Below are positions 23,719 to 48,115 of a DNA stretch of 64,000 nucleotides, piece by piece. Both the position numbers and the translations under genes were made by a program. This DNA comes from Chloroflexota bacterium (GTDB taxonomy: Bacteria > Chloroflexota > UBA11872 > VXOZ01): the NCBI GenBank assembly GCA_964291655.2, contig OZ219802.1, positions 1,760,001 to 1,824,000 of the forward strand, given 5' to 3'. Numbering within the stretch: the stretch's first letter is position 1; the number at the start of each line of letters is the position of its first letter. Under the pieces are notes generated by a model. The model did not search any database. It saw only the letters and a list, made by a program, of their open reading frames with translations, and had not been told where the DNA came from.

Positions 23719-23795
23719 CGGGGCGTGGCTCAGCCTGGTAGAGCGCAGCGTTCGGGACGCTGAGGCCGGCGGTTCAAATCCGCCCGCCCCGACCA
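23719..23795 (+). tRNA. tRNA-Pro (anticodon CGG)
   Basis: Acceptor stem CGGGGCG/CGCCCCG, anticodon stem CAGCG/CGCTG with loop TTCGGGA, GGTTCAAATCC T-arm, encoded CCA. Confidence 0.97.
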
Positions 23796-28632: not shown

Positions 28633-28650
28633 GTATGTCGCAATATTTCC

Positions 28651-28768
28651 CCTTATCTTGCCCCAATGCGCATGGGGCCGGAATTGGCACCCTGTCGTGG
28701 ACACAAATCATCGTCCACCGGGATGCCGGGCTTCATAGGGCCGTTTCCCTCCACCTCTCTTGATAAGG
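28651..28768 (-). ncRNA. SAM-I (S-box) riboswitch
   Basis: Minus strand reads CCTTATCAAGAGAGGTGGAGGGAAACGGCCCTATGAAGCCCGGCA...GGTGCCAATTCC...GATAAGG with P1 pairing. Confidence 0.93.
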
Positions 28769-29086
28769 CAACGGTTATTCACTTGTTAAATTGGGCAGGC
28801 CTCCGGCACTTGCGCCTGATGCCTGCACCTCATTCCTGGGTATGCTAACACAGCACCGCAAGCTCGTCAAACGGCGGCCTGACCACTTCCTGTCAGAGCG
28901 CCATTGCCTGGGCAACACGTTACAATTGAAGTGATGCGTGTCCGCACGGTACTTCGCACACGTAGAATGAAGGCTGCGCGCCTGAATCATGCGCCAGTCT
29001 CTCTTCCCGCGAGCATACCTTGCTGGGGGCGCTTCCCCGTATTGGCATAGTAGCACGGCATTTTTCACAGGAGTAATCAGCCTACG

Positions 29087-29797
29087 ATGGCAAACACAAG
29101 ACTACCCGATGGTCTCGTTCCCGCCGGCAGCTCACTGGAATTCACTGAAGATACCATACCGGATGCTCTTCAAAAAGAGCACGCTCTCGGGCCCGGACAC
29201 TGGGGCGTGCTGCACGTGTTCGAGGGACAGGTGAGCTTTGTGGACCTTGCCACCGGCGAGGAAACCGACGTGGTTGCGCCCGGCCATGCCGTCATTCAAC
29301 CGGAAGCGCCCCATAGGCTGCGCGTCACAGGTGCAGTGCGCTGCCGCATTGATTTCTTTCGCAAGCCGGAAGACGCCTCCGCCATGCGCACGCCGGGCAG
29401 CTTCGCTGAGGAGGAGGTGCGGCAGAGCTTCGCGCGGTGCGAGGCCGCCGGCGACTTTGCGGAAACTTTCTATAGCACCTTCATGAACGCCTCTCCCGCC
29501 ATTGCGCCCTTCTTCGCCCAAACGGAGTTCGGACGACAGCGCCAATTGCTGCGGGATTCGGTGTACCTGATGGTGACGCACGATGTTTCCGATCCCGATA
29601 TGCGGGCCTTGCTCGACAAGCTGGGCAGTCTCCACAGCCGCGCCGGCCGCAACATCGCGCCCAAACTCTACGAACTCTGGCTGGATTGCATCTGCGCCAC
29701 CGTCAAGCAGCTCGATCCGGAGTGGACCCAATCACTCGAAGACCACTGGCGGGTAAGACTGCGCGCGGGCATGCAGGTCATCATGGCGGCGTATTGA
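29087..29797 (+). CDS. DUF1971 (YeaR/TehB N-terminal cupin)-globin fusion protein
   Basis: N-terminal FTEDTIPDALQKEH..WGVLHVFEG..PEAPH; C-terminal SFARC..FYSTF..FFAQT..Q..LGSLHS..YELW globin; AGGAG RBS. Confidence 0.78.
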   Translation: MANTRLPDGLVPAGSSLEFTEDTIPDALQKEHALGPGHWGVLHVFEGQVSFVDLATGEETDVVAPGHAVIQPEAPHRLRVTGAVRCRIDFFRKPEDASAMRTPGSFAEEEVRQSFARCEAAGDFAETFYSTFMNASPAIAPFFAQTEFGRQRQLLRDSVYLMVTHDVSDPDMRALLDKLGSLHSRAGRNIAPKLYELWLDCICATVKQLDPEWTQSLEDHWRVRLRAGMQVIMAAY

Positions 29798-33962: not shown

Positions 33963-35227
33963 TGTATAGACCGGGTTGATGGGTAACGCTTGTTCGGGTT
34001 GATAGGTTACACCTATAGGCATGGAGAATCTTGCAGCGGGAGGATGACCATGTCGTGGAAGGTGGAAACGCTTATGTCTGCCCGGGAAGAGTTTATTGCT
34101 CTGGCCAATAGTGGCGCGGTGAGAATGAGCGAATTGTGCGGTCGGTTCAACATCAGCCGCAAGACTGGCTACAAGTGGTTGCGGCGGTACGCGTCGGGGG
34201 GAGCGCAGAGCCTGCGTGACCGTTCGCACCGCACGCACACGTGTCCGCACCGCACGCGCCCGGCGATGGAGGAACGCATCATCGCGCTGCGTCTGGCGCA
34301 TCCTACGAAGGGCGCCCATGTGCTGCGCAGAATGCTGCAGGACCAGGGGCATACCGACGTGCCGGCCAAGAGCACCATCAATGCCATTCTCAAACGCCAT
34401 GGGCTCATCGATCCAGCCCAGAGCGCCAAGCACACGCCCCATGTGCGCTTCGAACGACCCCAGCCCAACGAGCTGTGGCAGATGGACTTCAAGGGACATT
34501 TCGTCATGCAGCAGAACCGCTGTCATCCTCTCACCCTCCTAGACGATCACTCCCGCTTCAACCTCGGGTTACAGGCCTGTGCCAACGAGCGGGGAGAGAC
34601 GGTCCAAGACCGCCTCACCGCTGTCTTTCGCCGCTACGGCTTGCCCCAGGCCATGCTCATGGACAACGGCTCTCCCTGGGGTAACGACAGTGCCCAGCCC
34701 TTCACGCCCCTCACCGTCTGGCTCATGCAGCTGGGCATCAACGTCCTGCACAGCCGACCCTACCATCCCCAGACACTCGGCAAGCTGGAACGCTTCCACC
34801 GCTCCCTCAAGAGCGAACTGCTGGCAGGGACCACCTTTACCGACCTGGACCATTGCCAGCGCGCCTTTGACACCTGGCGCCACTTCTACAACTTGGAACG
34901 CCCACACCATGCCCTCGATCTCGACACTCCCATTACCAGATACACGCCTAGTCCTCGCCCTTTCCCAGAGACCTTGCCTGCCCTCGCCTACGCTCCCGAC
35001 GACCGCGTACGCAGCGTCGATGTCTCCGGCCGCATCTCCTTCCAAGGCAGACGGCTCCGTGTGGGCAGGGCCTTCACGCACAAGCAAGTCGCCCTGCGAC
35101 CCACCCGAACGGACGGTGTCTGGGACGTGTACTTCTCGATCCAAAGAGTAAAAACCATAGACCTCAGAGCACAAAATGTGTAACCTATCTACCCGAACAT
35201 CTGTTACCTATGTCCCCGGTCTGTACA
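33963..35227 (+). mobile_element. IS481-family insertion sequence, copy 1 (1265 bp, no direct TSD)
   Basis: TGTATAGACCGGG...CCCGGTCTGTACA ends with ~50-bp imperfect IRs; flanks are perfect inverted REP halves. Confidence 0.93.
34050..35183 (+). CDS. IS481-family transposase
   Basis: MSWK..ISRKTGYKW HTH, WQMDFKG, DDHSRF, DNG, PQTLGKLERFH rve/DDE core. Confidence 0.95.
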   Translation: MSWKVETLMSAREEFIALANSGAVRMSELCGRFNISRKTGYKWLRRYASGGAQSLRDRSHRTHTCPHRTRPAMEERIIALRLAHPTKGAHVLRRMLQDQGHTDVPAKSTINAILKRHGLIDPAQSAKHTPHVRFERPQPNELWQMDFKGHFVMQQNRCHPLTLLDDHSRFNLGLQACANERGETVQDRLTAVFRRYGLPQAMLMDNGSPWGNDSAQPFTPLTVWLMQLGINVLHSRPYHPQTLGKLERFHRSLKSELLAGTTFTDLDHCQRAFDTWRHFYNLERPHHALDLDTPITRYTPSPRPFPETLPALAYAPDDRVRSVDVSGRISFQGRRLRVGRAFTHKQVALRPTRTDGVWDVYFSIQRVKTIDLRAQNV

Positions 35228-35564: not shown

Positions 35565-36476
35565 TTAGCTTAGGCGCTGCGATGGGCCACGGCCGGGGTC
35601 CTCGTCGCTGATAAGAGCGGTGAGCGAGGTGTCGAGAGCTACGGCAATCCTTACCGCCGCGCCGATGGTAATGTTCTGTTTGCCCTTTTCCACCGTACTG
35701 AGGTAGGCGCGGTCGAGCCCCGCCCGCGCAGCCAGTTCCTGCTGGCTCCATCCCCGCTCTTTGCGCAGCCGCTGGACGTGACGCCCCAGCGCACTTAGGT
35801 GGTCCTCTACGGTTTTCGGCTCCTCGCCCACGCTCAAGAGGCTATTCGCAACACTAATCGCTTCCAGAGGATCAGCGGAGATGAGGTCCGCCGGCATCTC
35901 GGCGCGCAAAGCGGAGTCTGACAGACCCACACCGCCAACGAAAACGAACGGCGCATCGTCGAGTGACTTGAGGGTAGCGGCGGCCTCTTTCGCGACGCGC
36001 ATCAGGTCGCGTTGCGAGAGCGAGAGGATAACCAAGTCCGGTTTGCGCTCCCGCACCCATTCCACCAGGTCCTTGGTGGGCGTATTCTGACCCAAGAATG
36101 CAACGTCCCAACCTTCCAAATAGAAGAGATCGGCGATGAGTCGCGCACCCACCGCGTGCATTTCTCCTTCCACGGCCGTAATCACGGCCTCGGCCCCAAC
36201 GCGCTTGCGCCGCCGGGCGACACCCCGAATGTGCGCGCTCTGCTGGAGCGTGATCTGGATGGCAAGGTGTTCGGCGGCGATATTCAATTCGCCGCGGTGC
36301 CAGGCATCCCCTACCTCCGCTAGTGCAGGCGTGATTATCTCGGTATAGATCATGAGTGGGTTGACCCCCCGCTCCATGGCGTCTCTTATCGCATGGAACG
36401 CCTCTTCATGGCTGCCCGACAGCAGGCTCGCGGTGTACCGCTCGCACAGGAGCTCAATGTCTCGTCTAAGTTCCAT
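35565..36476 (-). CDS. cobalamin-binding (CarH-type) regulator with C-terminal XRE HTH
   Basis: W-x9-EH ([12 protein letters not shown]), ExHxxG (EMHAVG), LSLS, FVGG; C-terminal [36 protein letters not shown]. Confidence 0.88.
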
Positions 36477-36506
36477 CAGCGCCTCAACAAGAATTTTGTG
36501 AAAGTC

Positions 36507-36562
36507 TGTTGGATATAGTTGACATCGTGTTGTGTATATTATATCCTCTATTTGTTGGACAT
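36507..36562. promoter_or_regulatory. overlapping divergent promoters with candidate operator
   Basis: Plus strand TTGACA-17-TATCCT; minus strand TATAAT at 36538-36543; TGTTGGAYAT direct repeat at 36507 and 36553. Confidence 0.55.
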
Positions 36563-36637
36563 ATGCCGCACCCGGGTAAGCGTATGCTAGGCATATCAAG
36601 CAGAATCGTCAAGAGACCTGAGCAGAAGGAGTTCACC

Positions 36638-37210
36638 ATGCTTAGGGAATTAGCTAGGGCTTCCATGCGGAGCGCAGGCGCCTGTCGACGCTACGCGCGC
36701 AAAGTAGGGGTAGTTGCCGTGGCGGGACTTGCCCTGACATTGCTGGCGGCGTGCGGCGCAGATGCAGAATCCCCACCGGCGGCCGCAACGGAATCGCCGC
36801 CGGCCACCATTGTAGACATCGCCGTTGGCGACGGCAGGTTCGAGACCCTCGTAGCCGCCCTCCAGGCAGCAGGCCTCGTGGAGACACTGCAAGGTGAAGG
36901 TCCGTTCACCGTTTTCGCTCCCACGGACGATGCCTTCGCCAAGCTCCCCGAGGGTACGGTGGATGCGCTCCTGAAAGACATCCCCGCCTTGACTGACATT
37001 CTCCTGTACCACGTTGTGTCAGGCAACGTCATGGCCGCCGACGTCGTAAAGCTCGATATGGCGACCACCGTGCAGGGCGGCGCGGTGACTGTTTCGGTTG
37101 ACGGCGACACGGTGCGCATCAACGATGCCCAGGTCGTCATCACCGACATCGAGGCCTCCAACGGCACCATCCACGTGATCGACACCGTCTTGCTGCCGCC
37201 GCAGAACTAA
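36638..37210 (+). CDS. fasciclin (FAS1) domain lipoprotein
   Basis: AAGGAG RBS, LAAC lipobox, [33 protein letters not shown]. Confidence 0.92.
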
Positions 37211-37362
37211 AGCGTTTCCGGGCGACAGACAGAATGAATATCGCAAACTAGCATTCCGTTCAGGCGACCATGCGATAGGCGCAGACTAGGGCTGCAAATG
37301 CTGGCAACTTTCCACCCAAGCTCTAGTCTGCGTGCAGCGCGACCAACACTTCCCCCATTGGC

Positions 37363-37411
37363 TTGACATTAGAGTGCTCAGTCTTTATGCTACACAAAGA
37401 GGATAGTATAT
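37363..37411 (+). promoter_or_regulatory. sigma70-type promoter of the DUF378 gene plus candidate operator
   Basis: TTGACA-17 bp-TATGCT followed by ACAAAGAGGATAGTATAT. Confidence 0.6.
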
Positions 37412-37591
37412 GCTATTGCTCTGGTTGTCTAGAAGTTTGGAGGAATGGCCCGCTCGCCATTGAGTGATCTACAGCGCTCTCCGAGAGACATCGAATAGCA
37501 GGCGGGCAGCCTCCACGTGCCGACCGCGTCGGCAGAAGGAGGGGAAGTGAGGTCTAGGCAATGAAGTTAGAGAAAGCATCCAAGGAGAAAT

Positions 37592-37810
37592 GTGATGGAA
37601 ACACTACAACTCGCGGCCCTCATCGTAGCTGCAATCGGTGCCATTAACTGGGGCCTGGTTGGCCTCGCGAGGATCGACCTGGTTGCCCTCATCGCTGGCG
37701 GCCTCAAGTTTGGCGAAGTCAACTCCATCTCACGGGTTCTGTACATCGTGGTTGGCCTCGCCGGAGCTCTCGCTATTGTCTTGGAATTCACCGGCGGCAA
37801 TGGCGCGTAG
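37592..37810 (+). CDS. DUF378 family small membrane protein
   Basis: IGAINWGLVGL..DLVA..SRVLYIVVGLAG; AAGGAG RBS. Confidence 0.85.
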   Translation: MMETLQLAALIVAAIGAINWGLVGLARIDLVALIAGGLKFGEVNSISRVLYIVVGLAGALAIVLEFTGGNGA

Positions 37811-38156
37811 TGTTCCTGTGAGCATAAGAGATATTCTACCGACCGGGGCCGCACGGTCATCAGCGGCCGGTTGACAGTGCAGACCCTCTGGTGAAGCGAG
37901 GACGCACGACATTTCCTGCGTCCTCGCTTCCATCTTCACACCCATAGAAACCGTTCGCATAGAACTCGCTGAAGCGTTAGCGCGCCCTGCTTCCAGCGGA
38001 GACCCCCGAATCGGGGCACGGCACATTCAATGCGTGGTTCTGACGGACACGCGGGACCGGGCAGAAACGTTTAAGCGTGCCACTCATCCCGGTCCACTCA
38101 CCGAAGAGTCCCCTGCCTAATCCTTGCCGGGGCGGGGAAAGCCCCTTCTCCCGGCG

Positions 38157-38295
38157 GAGACCCTTGCGCAACTCCGTCTCTCCGGCGCAAGCCGGAATCC
38201 AGAGCGCCTTTATAGCTGAAAATAGATTGATGTCAATCCATTTCGCCTCCATCCCAATCTTCCCCCTCAAAGGTGAGGGGTTATGCAAAGGTCTC
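38157..38295. mobile_element. GAGACC-ended MITE in a REP hairpin loop
   Basis: GAGACCCTTGCGCAAC...GTTATGCAAAGGTCTC IRs; CGGCG duplicated on both sides. Confidence 0.6.
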
Positions 38296-38518
38296 CGGCG
38301 GGAGAGGGTGAGAGCCTGCCCTGTGCTCAATACAGCGGATCTACACGATACGGGGGTGAGGGGGGGAGTCCCCTCTCCCGGCGGGAGAGGGTTAGGGTGA
38401 GGGGGAGATTCCCGCAATCTGGGAGCTATTTCTGCCGTTATCGCACTCTTGCGTATCGGTCTTGTTGGTAAAGAGGACGGGACAAGCAGAAACCCCCTAG
38501 CCTAGCCCTCTCCCACAG

Positions 38519-38742
38519 GAGACCTTTGCATAACCCCCGCCGCAGCGCGGGTGACCCTTCTCCCTCGACGTGTGAGGGTGAATCTCCTGAATTCTCTCCA
38601 TAGCATACCGACATTTGCTCGGCTACATCTTGACACTGCACCGGTGCAAGGGGCCACTGCAACATAAAGATCCCCTCACCCCGACCCTCTCCCCGGGGAG
38701 AGGGAGGTTTTCTCGCCTACAGGTGAGTTACGCAAAGGTCTC
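38519..38742. mobile_element. second GAGACC-ended MITE in a REP hairpin loop
   Basis: GAGACCTTTGCATAAC...GTTACGCAAAGGTCTC; flanks CACAG/CCCAG (one mismatch); internal REP copy. Confidence 0.5.
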
Positions 38743-39043
38743 CCCAGGGAGAGGGAGAATCACCTGTGCGTTACGAGAGTCTCCGCCGGAAGGGGCGAGC
38801 GCCGGCCCGCACTCGATCCGTGGAATTCCTTGAGGGAGGGGGCAATGTTCGCGCCACTGGCACGAGTTACCAAGGCATCACCCATGGGAGGAAAGCGCTT
38901 CAGCTTGGATTCGGCCGTTTGCGACTCAACCGGCGATTCCGGCCGCCCTCACAGCAACAAGGTGCAGGGGAAATAGGCCCAAGTCTCACTTCGCTCCGGC
39001 ACACGAGCTCGCGGCAGCTACCGCCGTCCACACAAGCGGTGTC

Positions 39044-44350: not shown

Positions 44351-45615
44351 TGTACAGACCGGGGACATAGGTAACAGATGTTCGGGTAGATAGGTTACAC
44401 ATTTTGTGCTCTGAGGTCTATGGTTTTTACTCTTTGGATCGAGAAGTACACGTCCCAGACACCGTCCGTTCGGGTGGGTCGCAGGGCGACTTGCTTGTGC
44501 GTGAAGGCCCTGCCCACACGGAGCCGTCTGCCTTGGAAGGAGATGCGGCCGGAGACATCGACGCTGCGTACGCGGTCGTCGGGAGCGTAGGCGAGGGCAG
44601 GCAAGGTCTCTGGGAAAGGGCGAGGACTAGGCGTGTATCTGGTAATGGGAGTGTCGAGATCGAGGGCATGGTGTGGGCGTTCCAAGTTGTAGAAGTGGCG
44701 CCAGGTGTCAAAGGCGCGCTGGCAATGGTCCAGGTCGGTAAAGGTGGTCCCTGCCAGCAGTTCGCTCTTGAGGGAGCGGTGGAAGCGTTCCAGCTTGCCG
44801 AGTGTCTGGGGATGGTAGGGTCGGCTGTGCAGGACGTTGATGCCCAGCTGCATGAGCCAGACGGTGAGGGGCGTGAAGGGCTGGGCACTGTCGTTACCCC
44901 AGGGAGAGCCGTTGTCCATGAGCATGGCCTGGGGCAAGCCGTAGCGGCGAAAGACAGCGGTGAGGCGGTCTTGGACCGTCTCTCCCCGCTCGTTGGCACA
45001 GGCCTGTAACCCGAGGTTGAAGCGGGAGTGATCGTCTAGGAGGGTGAGAGGATGACAGCGGTTCTGCTGCATGACGAAATGTCCCTTGAAGTCCATCTGC
45101 CACAGCTCGTTGGGCTGGGGTCGTTCGAAGCGCACATGGGGCGTGTGCTTGGCGCTCTGGGCTGGATCGATGAGCCCATGGCGTTTGAGAATGGCATTGA
45201 TGGTGCTCTTGGCCGGCACGTCGGTGACCCCCTGGTCCTGCAGCATCCGGCGCAGCACGTGTGCGCCTTTCTTCGGATGCGCCAGGCGCAAGGCGATGAT
45301 GCGCTCCTCCAGCGCCGGGCGCGTGCGGTGCGGACACGTGTGCGGCCGCCGCGACCGGTCGTGCAAACCGTCTTCGCCAGCTTTCGCATACCGCTCCAGC
45401 GTCTTGTACGCCGTCTTGCGACTGATCTCCAGACGGCGACACAGCTCGCTGATGTTGGCCCCTTCCATCAGTGCCAGTGCAATGAACTCCTTGCGTTCAG
45501 ACACAACCGTACTCTCCTTCCAAGGCATGGCGCTCCTCCATCTGTAAGAATCTCCATGCCTTAAGGTGTAACCTATGTGCCCGAACATGTGTAACCCATG
45601 TACCCGGTCTATACA
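44351..45615 (-). mobile_element. IS481-family insertion sequence, copy 2 (1265 bp), TSD CTCCC
   Basis: TGT...ACA ends; removing it restores CCCTCACCCTAGCCCTCTCCCCAGGGAGAGGG. Confidence 0.95.
44395..45528 (-). CDS. IS481-family transposase
   Basis: MPWKE start after GGAGGAG; identical to copy 1 from TDVPAKS onward. Confidence 0.95.
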   Translation of the reverse strand: MPWKESTVVSERKEFIALALMEGANISELCRRLEISRKTAYKTLERYAKAGEDGLHDRSRRPHTCPHRTRPALEERIIALRLAHPKKGAHVLRRMLQDQGVTDVPAKSTINAILKRHGLIDPAQSAKHTPHVRFERPQPNELWQMDFKGHFVMQQNRCHPLTLLDDHSRFNLGLQACANERGETVQDRLTAVFRRYGLPQAMLMDNGSPWGNDSAQPFTPLTVWLMQLGINVLHSRPYHPQTLGKLERFHRSLKSELLAGTTFTDLDHCQRAFDTWRHFYNLERPHHALDLDTPITRYTPSPRPFPETLPALAYAPDDRVRSVDVSGRISFQGRRLRVGRAFTHKQVALRPTRTDGVWDVYFSIQRVKTIDLRAQNV

Positions 45616-45837
45616 CTCCCCAGGGAGAGGGGACTTTCCCGCCCCGGCAAGGGTTATGCAAAGGTCTCCACTGGGAGAAGGAGTAGCTCGTGCGCCTCCG
45701 GCCGGGTTCACGCAAAGGTCTCCAGTCGGAGAGGGGACATACTCGCTGCGGCTGGGTTTTCGCGAGAGTTTCCTCTGGGAGAGGGGACCATCTCAGATTG
45801 AGCAGGGCAATGGAAGAGTCTCGGAAGGAACCAGCAA

Positions 45838-46370: not shown

Positions 46371-46557
46371 AGTCTTGCTCTTCGCTAAGCCATGAGCAAG
46401 CCTTGCATAATGTTGGCCAAGTTTGCAGGTATTGCTCCCTCTCCCTGGGGAGAGATATAAGGGTCGGACCGGGGGCGCTGGTCTTGCTCTTCGCCATACC
46501 CAGAGCAAGCCTTGCTTAACACCGGTCAATTGTGCAGGAATTGCTCCCTCTCCTTGG
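46371..46557. repeat. imperfect ~110-bp tandem duplication containing a REP
   Basis: GTCTTGCTCTTCGC..GAGCAAGCCTTGC..GCAGG.ATTGCTCCCTCTCC occurs twice; IS1182 sits in the second copy. Confidence 0.65.
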
Positions 46558-48115
46558 GAGGCTGTCTCAATATTTTGGTGCGGGGCACGGTGAATGGGGT
46601 GAGAAGGACAGACAGATGGCGGGTGGTATGAACAAGACGGTGCCAGTGAGAGACTCGTCCCCGGGGCGACGCTGGACTACACCCAGACCGCCACAGGGCG
46701 TGGAGGCTCTTGAGATTGAACGCGGTGGCCAGCAGGTGCCATTCGGACGTCACGTGGCTGCGGCCTCTGAGCAGGAAGCGCCTGGCACTGTGCCACTCCT
46801 TGAGCAGGCCAAAGACCGGCTCGACGATGGTACTCCGGCGGCGGTACACCTGCTTGGCAGGCGCGGTGGCCATCAACTGCCTGTGCCGTTGCAGTATTGG
46901 CTCGTAGGCGCTGATCTTTATGGAGCGGCCCCTCTGGGAGGAGGTGCAGACGCCGAAGGCCGGACAGGTTCTGCAGTCCCGGCCGTTGGCTTGGTACCGC
47001 TTGACCCGGTAGCCGTTGCTGTGGGTCAAGCGGTGCGTGTAGGTGAGCACCTTTTGCTGGGGACACAGGTAGGTGTCGGTCTCTGGACGGTAGGTGAAGT
47101 GGTCTTTATGGTAGGGGTTGCGGCGTCTGCGCTCGTGGGTCGTGGGCATCAATACCGTGTGGCCGCCGGCGTGGCACGTGGCGAGGTTGGCCCCCGAATG
47201 GTAGCCGGCGTCCGCAACGGTCACCACGTCCCGCGCGGCGTCGATGTTCTCCTGCGCCGCCTCGATCAGCGGCGCCAGGTGGGGATGGTCGTCGGCACTG
47301 GCGCTCACGTCCACGGCTGTGATCAACCTCCCCCCTGCGCCCTCGTCCGGGGACGCAAGAGGGGAGACCAGCGCCTGGGCGTTGTAGCCGGTGATGAAGC
47401 CACCCATGCCAGTCTTGAGCAGGGCCGCGTCCGCATCAGTCAGGTTCGTGTAGCGCGGCCCGTCCTCAGCCGCGACGCGGGCGAGCGCGTCGTCCACCCG
47501 CCGCCGCAGGGCCTGGGCATCGGCAAGTTCCTGCGGCAAAGTCGCTGGCGGCGCGTCGCCCCCCGTGGCGTTCTGCGCCTCCAGGTCCGCGATCGCTTGC
47601 TCGGTGCGGGACAACAGCCGCTGCAGCCCCTGCGCGTCGTGGGTATGCCGCGTCCCGGCGTTGGCCGCGATCCTGGTGCCGTCCACCGCCTGGATTGCCA
47701 ACTCCACCAGGCCGGCTCGCACCGCCGTGCGCACCGTGCGCTTGAGCAGCGTCCGCATCCGGTCGCGGTGCGCCTTGTAGAAGCGCCACAGCGTGTTGTG
47801 GTCCGGCTGCTGCATCCCCACCAGCCACAGGTACGGTACCTGATCCCGGCAGGCTGCCTCCAGCTTGCGGCTCGAGCGCACGCCGGTCATGAAGCCGTAG
47901 ACCCATACGCCCAGCAGCGCGCGCGGATGGTAGGCCCCGGCGCCACGCGGATCGCCTTGCAGGTCAATCTCCATCGCCTCCCAGGCCGCAGCATCGAGGC
48001 TGTCCACGAACGCTGCCGCAAACCTGACAGGATGGTCGTCCGGGATCAGTTCGTCCAGCGTCGGCGGCAACAGCCAGGCCTGTTCACGACTAAACGGTCT
48101 CAACGGCATCGTCAC
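46526..48115 (-). CDS. IS1182-family transposase
   Basis: LLPPTLDELIPDDHP, SSRKLE, PDHNT, AVDGTRI, TDADA, ADAGY, YRRRSTIVEPVFG; ORF reads through the element end. Confidence 0.93.
   Translation of the reverse strand: MTMPLRPFSREQAWLLPPTLDELIPDDHPVRFAAAFVDSLDAAAWEAMEIDLQGDPRGAGAYHPRALLGVWVYGFMTGVRSSRKLEAACRDQVPYLWLVGMQQPDHNTLWRFYKAHRDRMRTLLKRTVRTAVRAGLVELAIQAVDGTRIAANAGTRHTHDAQGLQRLLSRTEQAIADLEAQNATGGDAPPATLPQELADAQALRRRVDDALARVAAEDGPRYTNLTDADAALLKTGMGGFITGYNAQALVSPLASPDEGAGGRLITAVDVSASADDHPHLAPLIEAAQENIDAARDVVTVADAGYHSGANLATCHAGGHTVLMPTTHERRRRNPYHKDHFTYRPETDTYLCPQQKVLTYTHRLTHSNGYRVKRYQANGRDCRTCPAFGVCTSSQRGRSIKISAYEPILQRHRQLMATAPAKQVYRRRSTIVEPVFGLLKEWHSARRFLLRGRSHVTSEWHLLATAFNLKSLHALWRSGCSPASPRGRVSHWHRLVHTTRHLSVLLTPFTVPRTKILRQPPKEREQFLHN

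Follow-up and report, generated by a model that had tools for sequence, protein, structure and literature searches.

A predicted cobalamin photoreceptor with a C-protein-like DNA-binding domain and palindromic candidate operators at a fasciclin promoter in Chloroflexota

The locus and its regulator

Contig OZ219802.1 of a Chloroflexota bacterium (assembly GCA_964291655.2) contains, within a stretch of 64,000 nucleotides (positions 1,760,001 to 1,824,000 of the forward strand; the whole of this stretch is referred to here as the window), a divergent gene arrangement that is the subject of this report. On the minus strand (35565..36476) lies a gene for a 303-residue regulator in which a CarH-type cobalamin (B12) sensor module is followed by a C-terminal helix-turn-helix (HTH) domain of the XRE type, similar to that of C proteins. 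Divergent from it, on the plus strand, a gene for a predicted fasciclin lipoprotein (36638..37210) is followed by one for a small DUF378 membrane protein (37595..37810), and the region between the regulator and fasciclin genes holds a set of palindromic candidate operators.

Three Pfam domains, each exceeding its gathering score, follow one another in the regulator in the order B12-binding_2, B12-binding and HTH_3, namely a four-helix cap (residues 11-75; 36252..36446, minus strand; E 3e-11), a Rossmann B12-binding domain (residues 97-193; 35898..36188, minus strand; E 3.5e-16) and the XRE domain (residues 235-287; 35616..35774, minus strand; E 3e-14). The cap carries G56xxW59, H60 and E69-H70, and the spacing W59-x9-E69-H70 is that by which CarH and class I LitR proteins are recognized (PMC8156234). 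The Rossmann domain carries G104-E-x-H107, with H107 as the predicted cobalt ligand, as well as G122, G129xxxP133, S152 and G181-G182. All four of the SignatureFinder motifs of light-responsive cobalamin-binding domains, GxxW, EH, GxxH and GxxxP (PMC11796333), are present (G56/W59, E69/H70, G104/H107, G129/P133), and the cobalamin motif ExHx2Gx41SxV/Tx22-27GG is matched at its published spacings by E105-x-H107-x-x-G110, S152 and G181-G182, the sole deviation being S154 in place of V/T, where T is found in 81/143 relatives. When aligned with Thermus thermophilus CarH (TtCarH), the sequence of which was taken from plasmid locus L081, G56/W59/H60 correspond to G128/W131/H132, E69/H70 to E141/H142, G104/E105/H107 to G174/E175/H177, G122 to G192, and G129/P133 to G199/P203. 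An earlier note on this DNA had listed the W-x9-EH, ExHxxG, S and GG motifs, a C-terminal XRE/Cro HTH of a fold different from that of CarH, and the lack of an N-terminal DNA-binding domain, and each of these is borne out: there is no Pfam match ahead of the cap, no more than 40 residues precede query position 8 in any of the 143 full-length relatives, and the XRE domain takes the place of the MerR domain. The open reading frame could also be read from a TTG at 36599, but alignments with the closest relatives begin at the ATG at 36476.

The AlphaFold2 model of the regulator (mean predicted local distance difference test score, pLDDT, 91.9; predicted template modelling score, pTM, 0.71) finds photocobilins, CtMerR and CarH as its top Foldseek matches. 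Among solved structures the best match by sequence is CtMerR (8JBS, E 8e-22), and the proven photoreceptors CtMerR, photocobilins and TtCarH all outrank corrinoid proteins. The photocobilins (8J2W, 8J2X, 8J2Y) likewise place a light-responsive B12 module ahead of a C-terminal partner, although that partner is a bilin-binding globin, and with a full-length root-mean-square deviation of 17 A only the B12 module matches. The NCBIfam CarH model NF052513 covers residues 10-188 only and scores 77.5 bits against a cut-off of 400. A corrinoid protein of the methyltransferase kind (MtbC, MtaC or MetH module) was considered and rejected, as TIGR02370 scores 56.9 against 215.3 and NF041607 43.1 against 350, and W-x9-EH is present; the Joint Genome Institute annotation 'MtbC1/XRE' on two homologs is a domain label.

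The family and its conservation

The fusion of a B12 module to a C-terminal XRE domain is widespread. Of 8000 scored candidates, 102 were hits at E <= 1e-10, of which 96 have B12-binding and HTH_3 and 93 all three domains, and in a profile search 143 of the 150 listed representatives at 50% identity covered both modules, with a median identity to the query of 33%. Because both modules are covered so consistently and the motifs are kept, the fusion is real, old and diverse rather than an assembly chimera. W59, E69, H70 and H107 are jointly retained in 120 of the 143 full-length representatives, all eight signature residues in 96, and within the HTH R238 and N268 never vary, while R256 is found in 142. 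The domain string is already in databases: the ESM Atlas holds seven clusters with the same Pfam set at a score of at least 0.9, and named homologs bear generic labels only. Plasmid records gave 108 matches, none spanning more than 80% of the query.

The genomic loci compared here are the best 80 of 288 confirmed matches, found in a genome scan with search patterns derived from the HTH. They comprise 12 near loci, 21 mid loci (Dehalococcoidia, Caldilineaceae, Tepidiformaceae), 19 distant loci and 28 Bdellovibrionota-type loci. The nearest relatives of the regulator are Chloroflexota metagenome-assembled genomes (MAGs), and in a quick IQ-TREE analysis, which left out L076 and has an unresolved backbone, the near and mid loci together with the window form a single clade of 33 rows with a support of 100. 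G122, the equivalent of TtCarH G192, a residue whose G192Q mutant blocks tetramers (PMC8221060), is invariant in 79/79 aligned loci, and in the Bdellovibrionota-type loci (L038-L073) W59, H60, E69, H70 and H107 are invariant in 27/27 aligned members.

DNA-binding domain

The solved sequence relatives of the HTH in the Protein Data Bank include C.BclI, C.AhdI and C.Esp1396I, the last of which shares with it R17, Q24, D34, R35, Y37, S39, N47 and T49. C.Esp1396I reads TG..GAC-TATA-GTC..CA by way of R35, T36 and R46, and bends the central TATA with D34, Y37, N47 and T49 (PMC3488213). Equivalents of these residues are kept in the regulator as D255, R256, Y258, N268 and T270, while T36 is replaced by A257 and R46 by Q267, so that the L-D-R-A-Y of its recognition helix (D255-R256-A257-Y258) corresponds to the D-R-T-Y of C proteins. 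Position 257 is T in all 40 mid and distant loci, found with a search pattern that allowed only T or A, and in 63 of the 143 representatives found without that pattern. Q267 occurs in 122 of the 143 and R in only 5; this R46-to-Q change may account for a C-box that has moved away from GAC/GTC and towards GAA/TTC. The regulator thus shares with C.Esp1396I, C.AhdI and C.BclI the XRE fold, the D-R-[T/A]-Y recognition helix and the N47/T49 equivalents, and its family shares with C-protein operators the palindrome geometry TG..GA(C/A)-TATA-(G/T)TC..CA. Unlike the small stand-alone C proteins, however, its HTH sits behind a 215-residue B12 module, family sites lie about 21-32 bp apart whereas C-protein sites are adjacent within 35 bp, and no restriction endonuclease gene linked to a regulator was seen among the scanned neighbours. 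Its predicted reading of DNA resembles that of a C protein, yet it is not a C protein.

Predicted operators and promoters

De novo motif searches in the 220 nt upstream of the regulators, carried out per locus group, returned an 18-bp palindrome, TGtnGAaTATAtTCnACA, with the C-box geometry of the C.Esp1396I operator; this palindrome stands in front of family genes in several phyla. The palindrome of the distant group, TGTngAaTATAtTcnACA, reached a log-likelihood of 112, compared with 26-28 for four shuffles that used fewer seeds, and an essentially equal motif in the mid group reached 133 against 27-31. In records of Chloroflexota, Bipolaricaulota and Fraserbacteria the palindrome accompanies the regulator, with sites mostly spaced by 21-22 or 30-33 bp, and in L014-L016 the site pair is located at the fasciclin gene, 0.6-1 kb from the regulator start.

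In the window a matrix built from the distant loci only, when run over all 64 kb, places its three sites of at least 8 bits in the regulator-fasciclin intergenic region. The top site, O1 (36507..36524), is a predicted 18-bp pseudo-palindrome over the -35 hexamer of the fasciclin promoter and scores 18.3 bits against a maximum of 13.9 in 30 shuffles; an equivalent site is found in 11 of the 12 nearest loci, the window included. Predicted O2 (36528..36545, with an alternative register at 36533-36550) lies 21 bp from O1 over the spacer and the -10 element, and scores 12.5 bits with the distant-only and 10.9 bits with the combined far+mid matrix, although the AT-rich -10 may inflate these values. 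Predicted O3 (36553..36570), at the presumed fasciclin transcription start, scores 13.6 bits with the far+mid matrix and is conserved in the near and mid clades; it falls outside the top 15 of the distant-only matrix. A weak fourth site (36585-36602, 8.3 bits) lies inside the regulator promoter. The sigma70-like fasciclin promoter (36519..36547, plus strand; TTGACA-17-TATCCT) is found at the same place in 11/12 near and 12/21 mid loci, and is faced by a sigma70-like regulator promoter (36584..36612, minus strand; TTGACG-17-TAGCAT), present in 11/12 near and 3/21 mid loci.

Operators of other kinds were sought with negative results. Two or more 11-bp TnnACA repeats in tandem, the defining feature of a CarH operator (PMC8156234), were found in 0/52 family upstream regions, the window included, whereas the TtCarH control has 3, and an operator of the CarH direct-repeat type was accordingly rejected. 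The regulators are thus a predicted B12-photoreceptor family of several phyla that lies outside CarH/LitR, having neither the MerR domain nor the direct-repeat operator. The core GAA-N4-TTC is similar to a Rex box, and TGT..ACA to a CRP box; both were rejected, on the matrix columns only, as G has a frequency of 0.77-0.88 at position 2 and 0.03-0.05 at position 3, in keeping with neither consensus. A 20-nt inverted match (36536-36555 / 37392-37411) was likewise dismissed as a shared operator, as its DUF378 side scores 4.0 and 5.8 bits locally and no matrix site is found there. Rfam detected no cobalamin riboswitch at the locus, the window having only a SAM riboswitch and a tRNA. Separately, L034 and L037 each have a 19-bit operator-like site within the regulator coding sequence, about +410 from its start.

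Gene neighbourhoods

The fasciclin protein has 190 residues, a single FAS1 domain (Pfam Fasciclin E 3e-41) and a lipobox-like LLAAC with C39; relatives of 94-95% identity (329 residues) have two near-identical FAS1 domains, so that the single domain reflects either a real loss of a repeat or an assembly collapse. The gene is the main predicted target of the regulator. DUF378 (71 residues; Pfam E 7e-16) begins about 385 bp after fasciclin, beyond an RNA hairpin (37279..37335, plus strand) that could be a terminator or a repeat (z -2.3; 3 of 200 shuffles fold equally well; similar arms occur in near loci), and has a sigma70-like promoter of its own (37363..37391, plus strand; TTGACA-17-TATGCT). 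At this promoter there is only a degenerate operator-like site (37377-37394, plus strand; 5.8 bits), and control of DUF378 in the window is therefore doubtful. Equivalent sites reach 8-10 bits in L010 and L011 only, while those at DUF378 promoters of the distant loci L032, L033, L035 and L036 score 13-19 bits, and DUF378 is probably a regulon member at the level of the family. The predicted fold of its leader of about 200 nt (37400-37594) does not surpass those of shuffles (z -1.3 and -1.5); towards the 3' end the leader has conserved blocks, among them a small hairpin with an AGGAGG run after it, and it has no Rfam match.

For the comparison across loci, neighbour genes were called with a crude scorer, 338 neighbour proteins were scanned with Pfam and families were counted by tblastn. 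Fasciclin is the divergent neighbour in 27/80 loci, all of one Chloroflexota clade (10 of the 12 near and 17 of the 21 mid loci), and the link persists despite different flanking genes in Dehalococcoidia, Caldilineaceae and Tepidiformaceae. DUF378 is near the regulator in 20/80 loci of five separate tree lineages (11 near, 0 mid and 9 distant). The distant loci have no fasciclin; among the 19, photolyase occurs in 6, heliorhodopsin in 3, and one or the other within 10 kb in 7, on five separate branches, together with DUF523/DUF1722 in 6, a TIGR01777-like epimerase in 6, DUF2867 in 7 and DUF1365 with a flavin oxidoreductase in 2. The DUF523/1722, TIGR01777 and DUF2867 families also accompany LitR loci. 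Photolyase, short-chain dehydrogenase/reductase (SDR), flavin adenine dinucleotide (FAD) oxidoreductase and furan fatty-acid genes are light-induced targets of the Pseudomonas class II LitR proteins PplR and PmlR (PMC9758184), and the RpoE regulon of the singlet-oxygen response includes phrA and a fasciclin, RSP_1409 (PMC7074977, Table 1). The family regulon therefore looks like the usual photo-oxidative stress set, although the regulators differ: class II LitR has a MerR HTH, a light-oxygen-voltage (LOV) partner and no B12, and RpoE-ChrR is an extracytoplasmic function (ECF) sigma factor with an anti-sigma factor. Cobalamin-related neighbours are scarce, with CbiX in L043 and L065 only. In most Bdellovibrionota-type loci a DnaJ-like gene and a CmoB-like methyltransferase gene are found, ApaG genes also being neighbours, and the regulon of these regulators is probably located elsewhere.

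What the earlier note had said of the surroundings holds, with qualifications. The fasciclin lipoprotein divergent from the regulator is upheld, as is the absence of nearby carotenoid genes, no carotenoid enzyme families being found among the 39 window proteins scanned with Pfam, with shorter open reading frames only partly covered; nor was the phytoene synthase family found in the scanned neighbours, a scan that leaves outside it 103 of the 112 far-flank mid-locus proteins and the distal genome. The order fasciclin then DUF378 stands, with the intervening hairpin and separate promoter as a qualification, and the suggested linkage of homologues to these two genes is real for fasciclin within its one clade and for DUF378 in its 20 loci. 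The proposed control of envelope genes is supported for fasciclin and doubtful for DUF378 here, the regulon of the family being wider.

Several neighbours are recorded here for completeness. Two close relatives lack fasciclin and the operator region (L011:9950-10000 and L076:9990-10010), and L076 has no B12 module either, so that its regulator consists of the C-terminal part alone. Genes at L037:16121-16822, L034:3955-4290 and L034:7786-8637, which comprise an ABC/FtsX-type transporter operon, a DUF1475 gene and an unassigned gene, have upstream sites of 20-24 bits and could be extra regulon members. Stress-related neighbours (at L065:6071-7479, downstream in L043 and L065, and at L044:6876-7766, L036:10642-11984, L029:7774-8220 and L079:5790-6395) include an ECF sigma factor with an RskA anti-sigma factor, CbiX after DUF523/1722, a beta-carotene dioxygenase, riboflavin synthesis genes, a pyrimidine-dimer glycosylase and a Dps-like ferritin. 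A transporter of the MMPL family adjoins the regulator or fasciclin in 8/21 mid loci (L012, L013, L018, L019, L024, L026, L029, L060).

Proposed mechanism and its alternatives

Taken together, these features suggest that the regulator is probably an adenosylcobalamin (AdoCbl)-dependent, light-released dark repressor that joins a CarH-type sensor to a C-protein-like XRE domain and acts on palindromes in phase over the promoter of the fasciclin gene. With AdoCbl bound, CarH assembles in the dark into head-to-tail dimers and tetramers, which come apart on photolysis (PMC8156234, PMC8221060), and the best reading by analogy is that the regulator would work likewise. In the dark AdoCbl would drive the sensor modules into head-to-tail dimers and probably tetramers, the oligomer would present paired XRE domains to two or more of the phased 18-bp palindromes O1-O3, and their occupancy of the -35 to +1 region would block RNA polymerase. 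Light would cleave the Co-C bond and the oligomer would fall apart, H60 possibly forming a bis-His adduct of the CarH type, so that cooperative binding would cease and the fasciclin lipoprotein would be produced. Other lineages would use the same kind of switch to control photolyase, heliorhodopsin, DUF523/DUF1722, DUF378 and related photo-stress genes.

The likeness to CarH and class I LitR (5C8D; CtMerR 8JBS) extends from the four-helix cap and Rossmann module, with W-x9-EH, E-x-H-x2-G, GxxxP, the H after W and the G192 equivalent, to the divergent layout with a predicted operator over the -35 of the target, and a head-to-tail dimer is predicted as well. The homodimer model (residues 1-292; own alignment, an arbitrary zinc ion and no cobalamin) scored 0.74 against 0.01 for the best control, with 100% contact agreement between runs and a pLDDT of 85, and the modelled interface brings the cap (65-85) against the Rossmann domain (125-141). 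The mark used for the dimer score is reached by 20/30 solved homo-pairs and 1/23 single chains, counts that hold only roughly, and the result may stem from the likeness to solved CarH. Unlike CarH, the regulator has a C-terminal XRE domain and no N-terminal MerR winged helix, its predicted sites are 18-bp palindromes spaced by 21-22 or 30-33 bp rather than tandem 11-bp TnnACA repeats, the R176-D201 pair is missing, and no carotenoid genes were found among those scanned. Light is favoured over a generic redox input because distant relatives adjoin photolyase and heliorhodopsin. The earlier note's suggestion of a re-wired B12 switch is supported by the conserved family, the complete chromophore signature, the candidate operator over the fasciclin -35 and these neighbours.

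A number of observations weigh against this proposal. In the protein, the R176-D201 salt bridge of TtCarH is replaced by M106 and N131, and the dimer model has no confident contact between the two HTHs. In the DNA, O1 contains the -35 hexamer TTGACA, which raises its score; with the far+mid matrix local shuffles reach up to 22.2 bits (mean maximum 14.8) compared with 20.0 for O1, and three further window sites score 12-15 bits where 2.3 are expected by chance; and a simple IUPAC pattern was matched 1 time where 0.69 matches were expected, a count that is not significant. The enrichment that speaks for the proposal, with 13/26 candidate regulon genes but 12/283 other genes preceded by sites of 12 bits or more beyond the windows used for training, is uncorrected for kinship. 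The phasing that likewise speaks for it, adjacent sites being spaced by 20-22, 30-33, 41-43 or 52-53 bp in 26/30 distant and 33/37 mid pairs, against 28% expected if uniform, is also uncorrected for kinship, and its set of spacings was picked after the data had been viewed; the near clade is in phase in just 18/30 pairs, and in the window the O2-O3 spacing of 25 bp is off phase. In the neighbourhoods, photolyase and heliorhodopsin are absent within 10 kb in the window and the 33 closest loci, one of which has a pyrimidine-dimer glycosylase within that distance, the 28 Bdellovibrionota-type loci have none of the tested marker genes, and that group has a different, variant palindrome, TGntGnaTtaAtnCanCA. 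Finally, one diel metatranscriptome study reported no light-dark differential genes in nine Chloroflexi MAGs, which may or may not carry the regulator (PMC12879404).

The likeliest alternative is that the input is not light, and that the regulator, on the same operators, senses cobalamin status, oxygen or reactive oxygen species: it would answer to how much AdoCbl is available or to the oxidative cleavage of this cofactor, and any effect of light would be incidental. CarH-type repression requires AdoCbl (PMC8156234), so that B12 shortage would also derepress, the monomerisation of TtCarH requires oxygen (PMC11796333), singlet oxygen induces a fasciclin under RpoE in R. sphaeroides (PMC7074977), and the clade of the window has neither photolyase nor heliorhodopsin nearby. 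Yet the full photoreceptor signature is conserved, seven of the 19 distant loci have one of these genes beside the regulator, and the near lack of cobalamin-related neighbours speaks against a B12-status sensor, so that we regard this alternative as improbable. It is still less probable that the protein is a photoreceptor whose palindrome is the site of another factor or a by-product of overlap with sigma70 elements, fasciclin and DUF378 being neighbours by inheritance only. The TTGACA within O1, the overlap of O2 with the -10 and the 5.8-bit site at DUF378 could be taken in this sense, and since all fasciclin links fall in one 33-row clade they may go back to a single event. However, 61 of the 82 sites scoring 14 bits or more lack TTGACA in both orientations, from which it follows that the palindrome is not merely a -35 element; matrix positions 2 and 3 fit neither the Rex nor the CRP box; the motif tracks the regulator across the three groups of records named above and fits a recognition helix of the C-protein type; and the fasciclin link has outlasted changes in its flanking genes.

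The polarity of the switch could also be otherwise, in that the regulator might be a dual activator-repressor like C proteins, or might bind DNA better after illumination, once its XRE dimers are released from the oligomer of the dark state, light then switching the targets off or activating one of the two facing promoters. One dimer of C.Esp1396I activates and two repress (PMC2504287), and a sensor dimer in which the HTHs make no confident contact would be compatible with such behaviour; the position of O1 on the -35 hexamer itself is nevertheless a repressing one, and photolyase-type neighbours are light-induced in described systems (PMC9758184), which leaves a reversed or dual polarity highly improbable. 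The dark-repressor proposal can be extended to a broader view, to which we would give slightly less than an even chance, namely that this is a separately assembled, multi-phylum B12 photorepressor family with a C-protein-derived XRE domain, the dark tetramer of which would place two XRE dimers on palindromes two to three turns apart on one face of the DNA, the local regulon of one Chloroflexota clade being reduced to a surface fasciclin lipoprotein, which would mean light-controlled remodelling of the surface, or adhesion, in non-phototrophs. With two XRE dimers on phased palindromes, light would act by removing the cooperativity between operators.

Other features of the window

Elsewhere in the window there are a SAM-I riboswitch (28650-28769, minus strand) upstream of threonine-synthase-like and ThiS/MoaD genes, a tRNA detected by Rfam (23719-23792), and a gene (29087-29797) whose product joins DUF1971 to a globin-like domain (Globin E 2e-4) and which several close relatives retain. 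Two IS481-type transposase copies (33990-35183 and 44395-45711) have near-identical C-terminal parts, and a DDE/DUF772 transposase at 46526-48115 is one that we take to be IS1182-like. A palindromic repeat resembling repetitive extragenic palindromic (REP) elements, CCCTCTCCC / GGGAGAGGG, occurs in 22 places (19358-48205), densely so at 38100-38800 and beside the IS481 copies.

Implications

[quoted passage not shown] What is new here is the C-protein-like HTH, the recurring palindrome with C-box geometry, and the position of the best site of the window over the fasciclin -35. The novelty is bounded by the presence of the domain string in database clusters and by one survey, according to which light-responsive B12 domains are joined, at either terminus, to output domains that include HTHs (PMC11796333); the term 'XRE' does not occur in the text of its one supplementary file, and its Fig. 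9 and Fig. S9 may include the B12-binding and XRE architecture. No description of a B12-binding regulator with a C-terminal XRE domain was found in the literature searched, the scope of which excluded most subscription papers, several CarH reviews among them.

The protein, a predicted operator and a predicted target promoter are all specified, so that the proposal is directly testable. If it is true, the same photochemistry would have a second architecture with a palindrome-reading domain, which could provide a green-light repressor for optogenetics with an operator different from that of CarH. B12 light sensing would then extend to uncultured Chloroflexota, Bdellovibrionota and candidate phyla, and heliorhodopsin and DUF378 would be tied to a defined light regulon.

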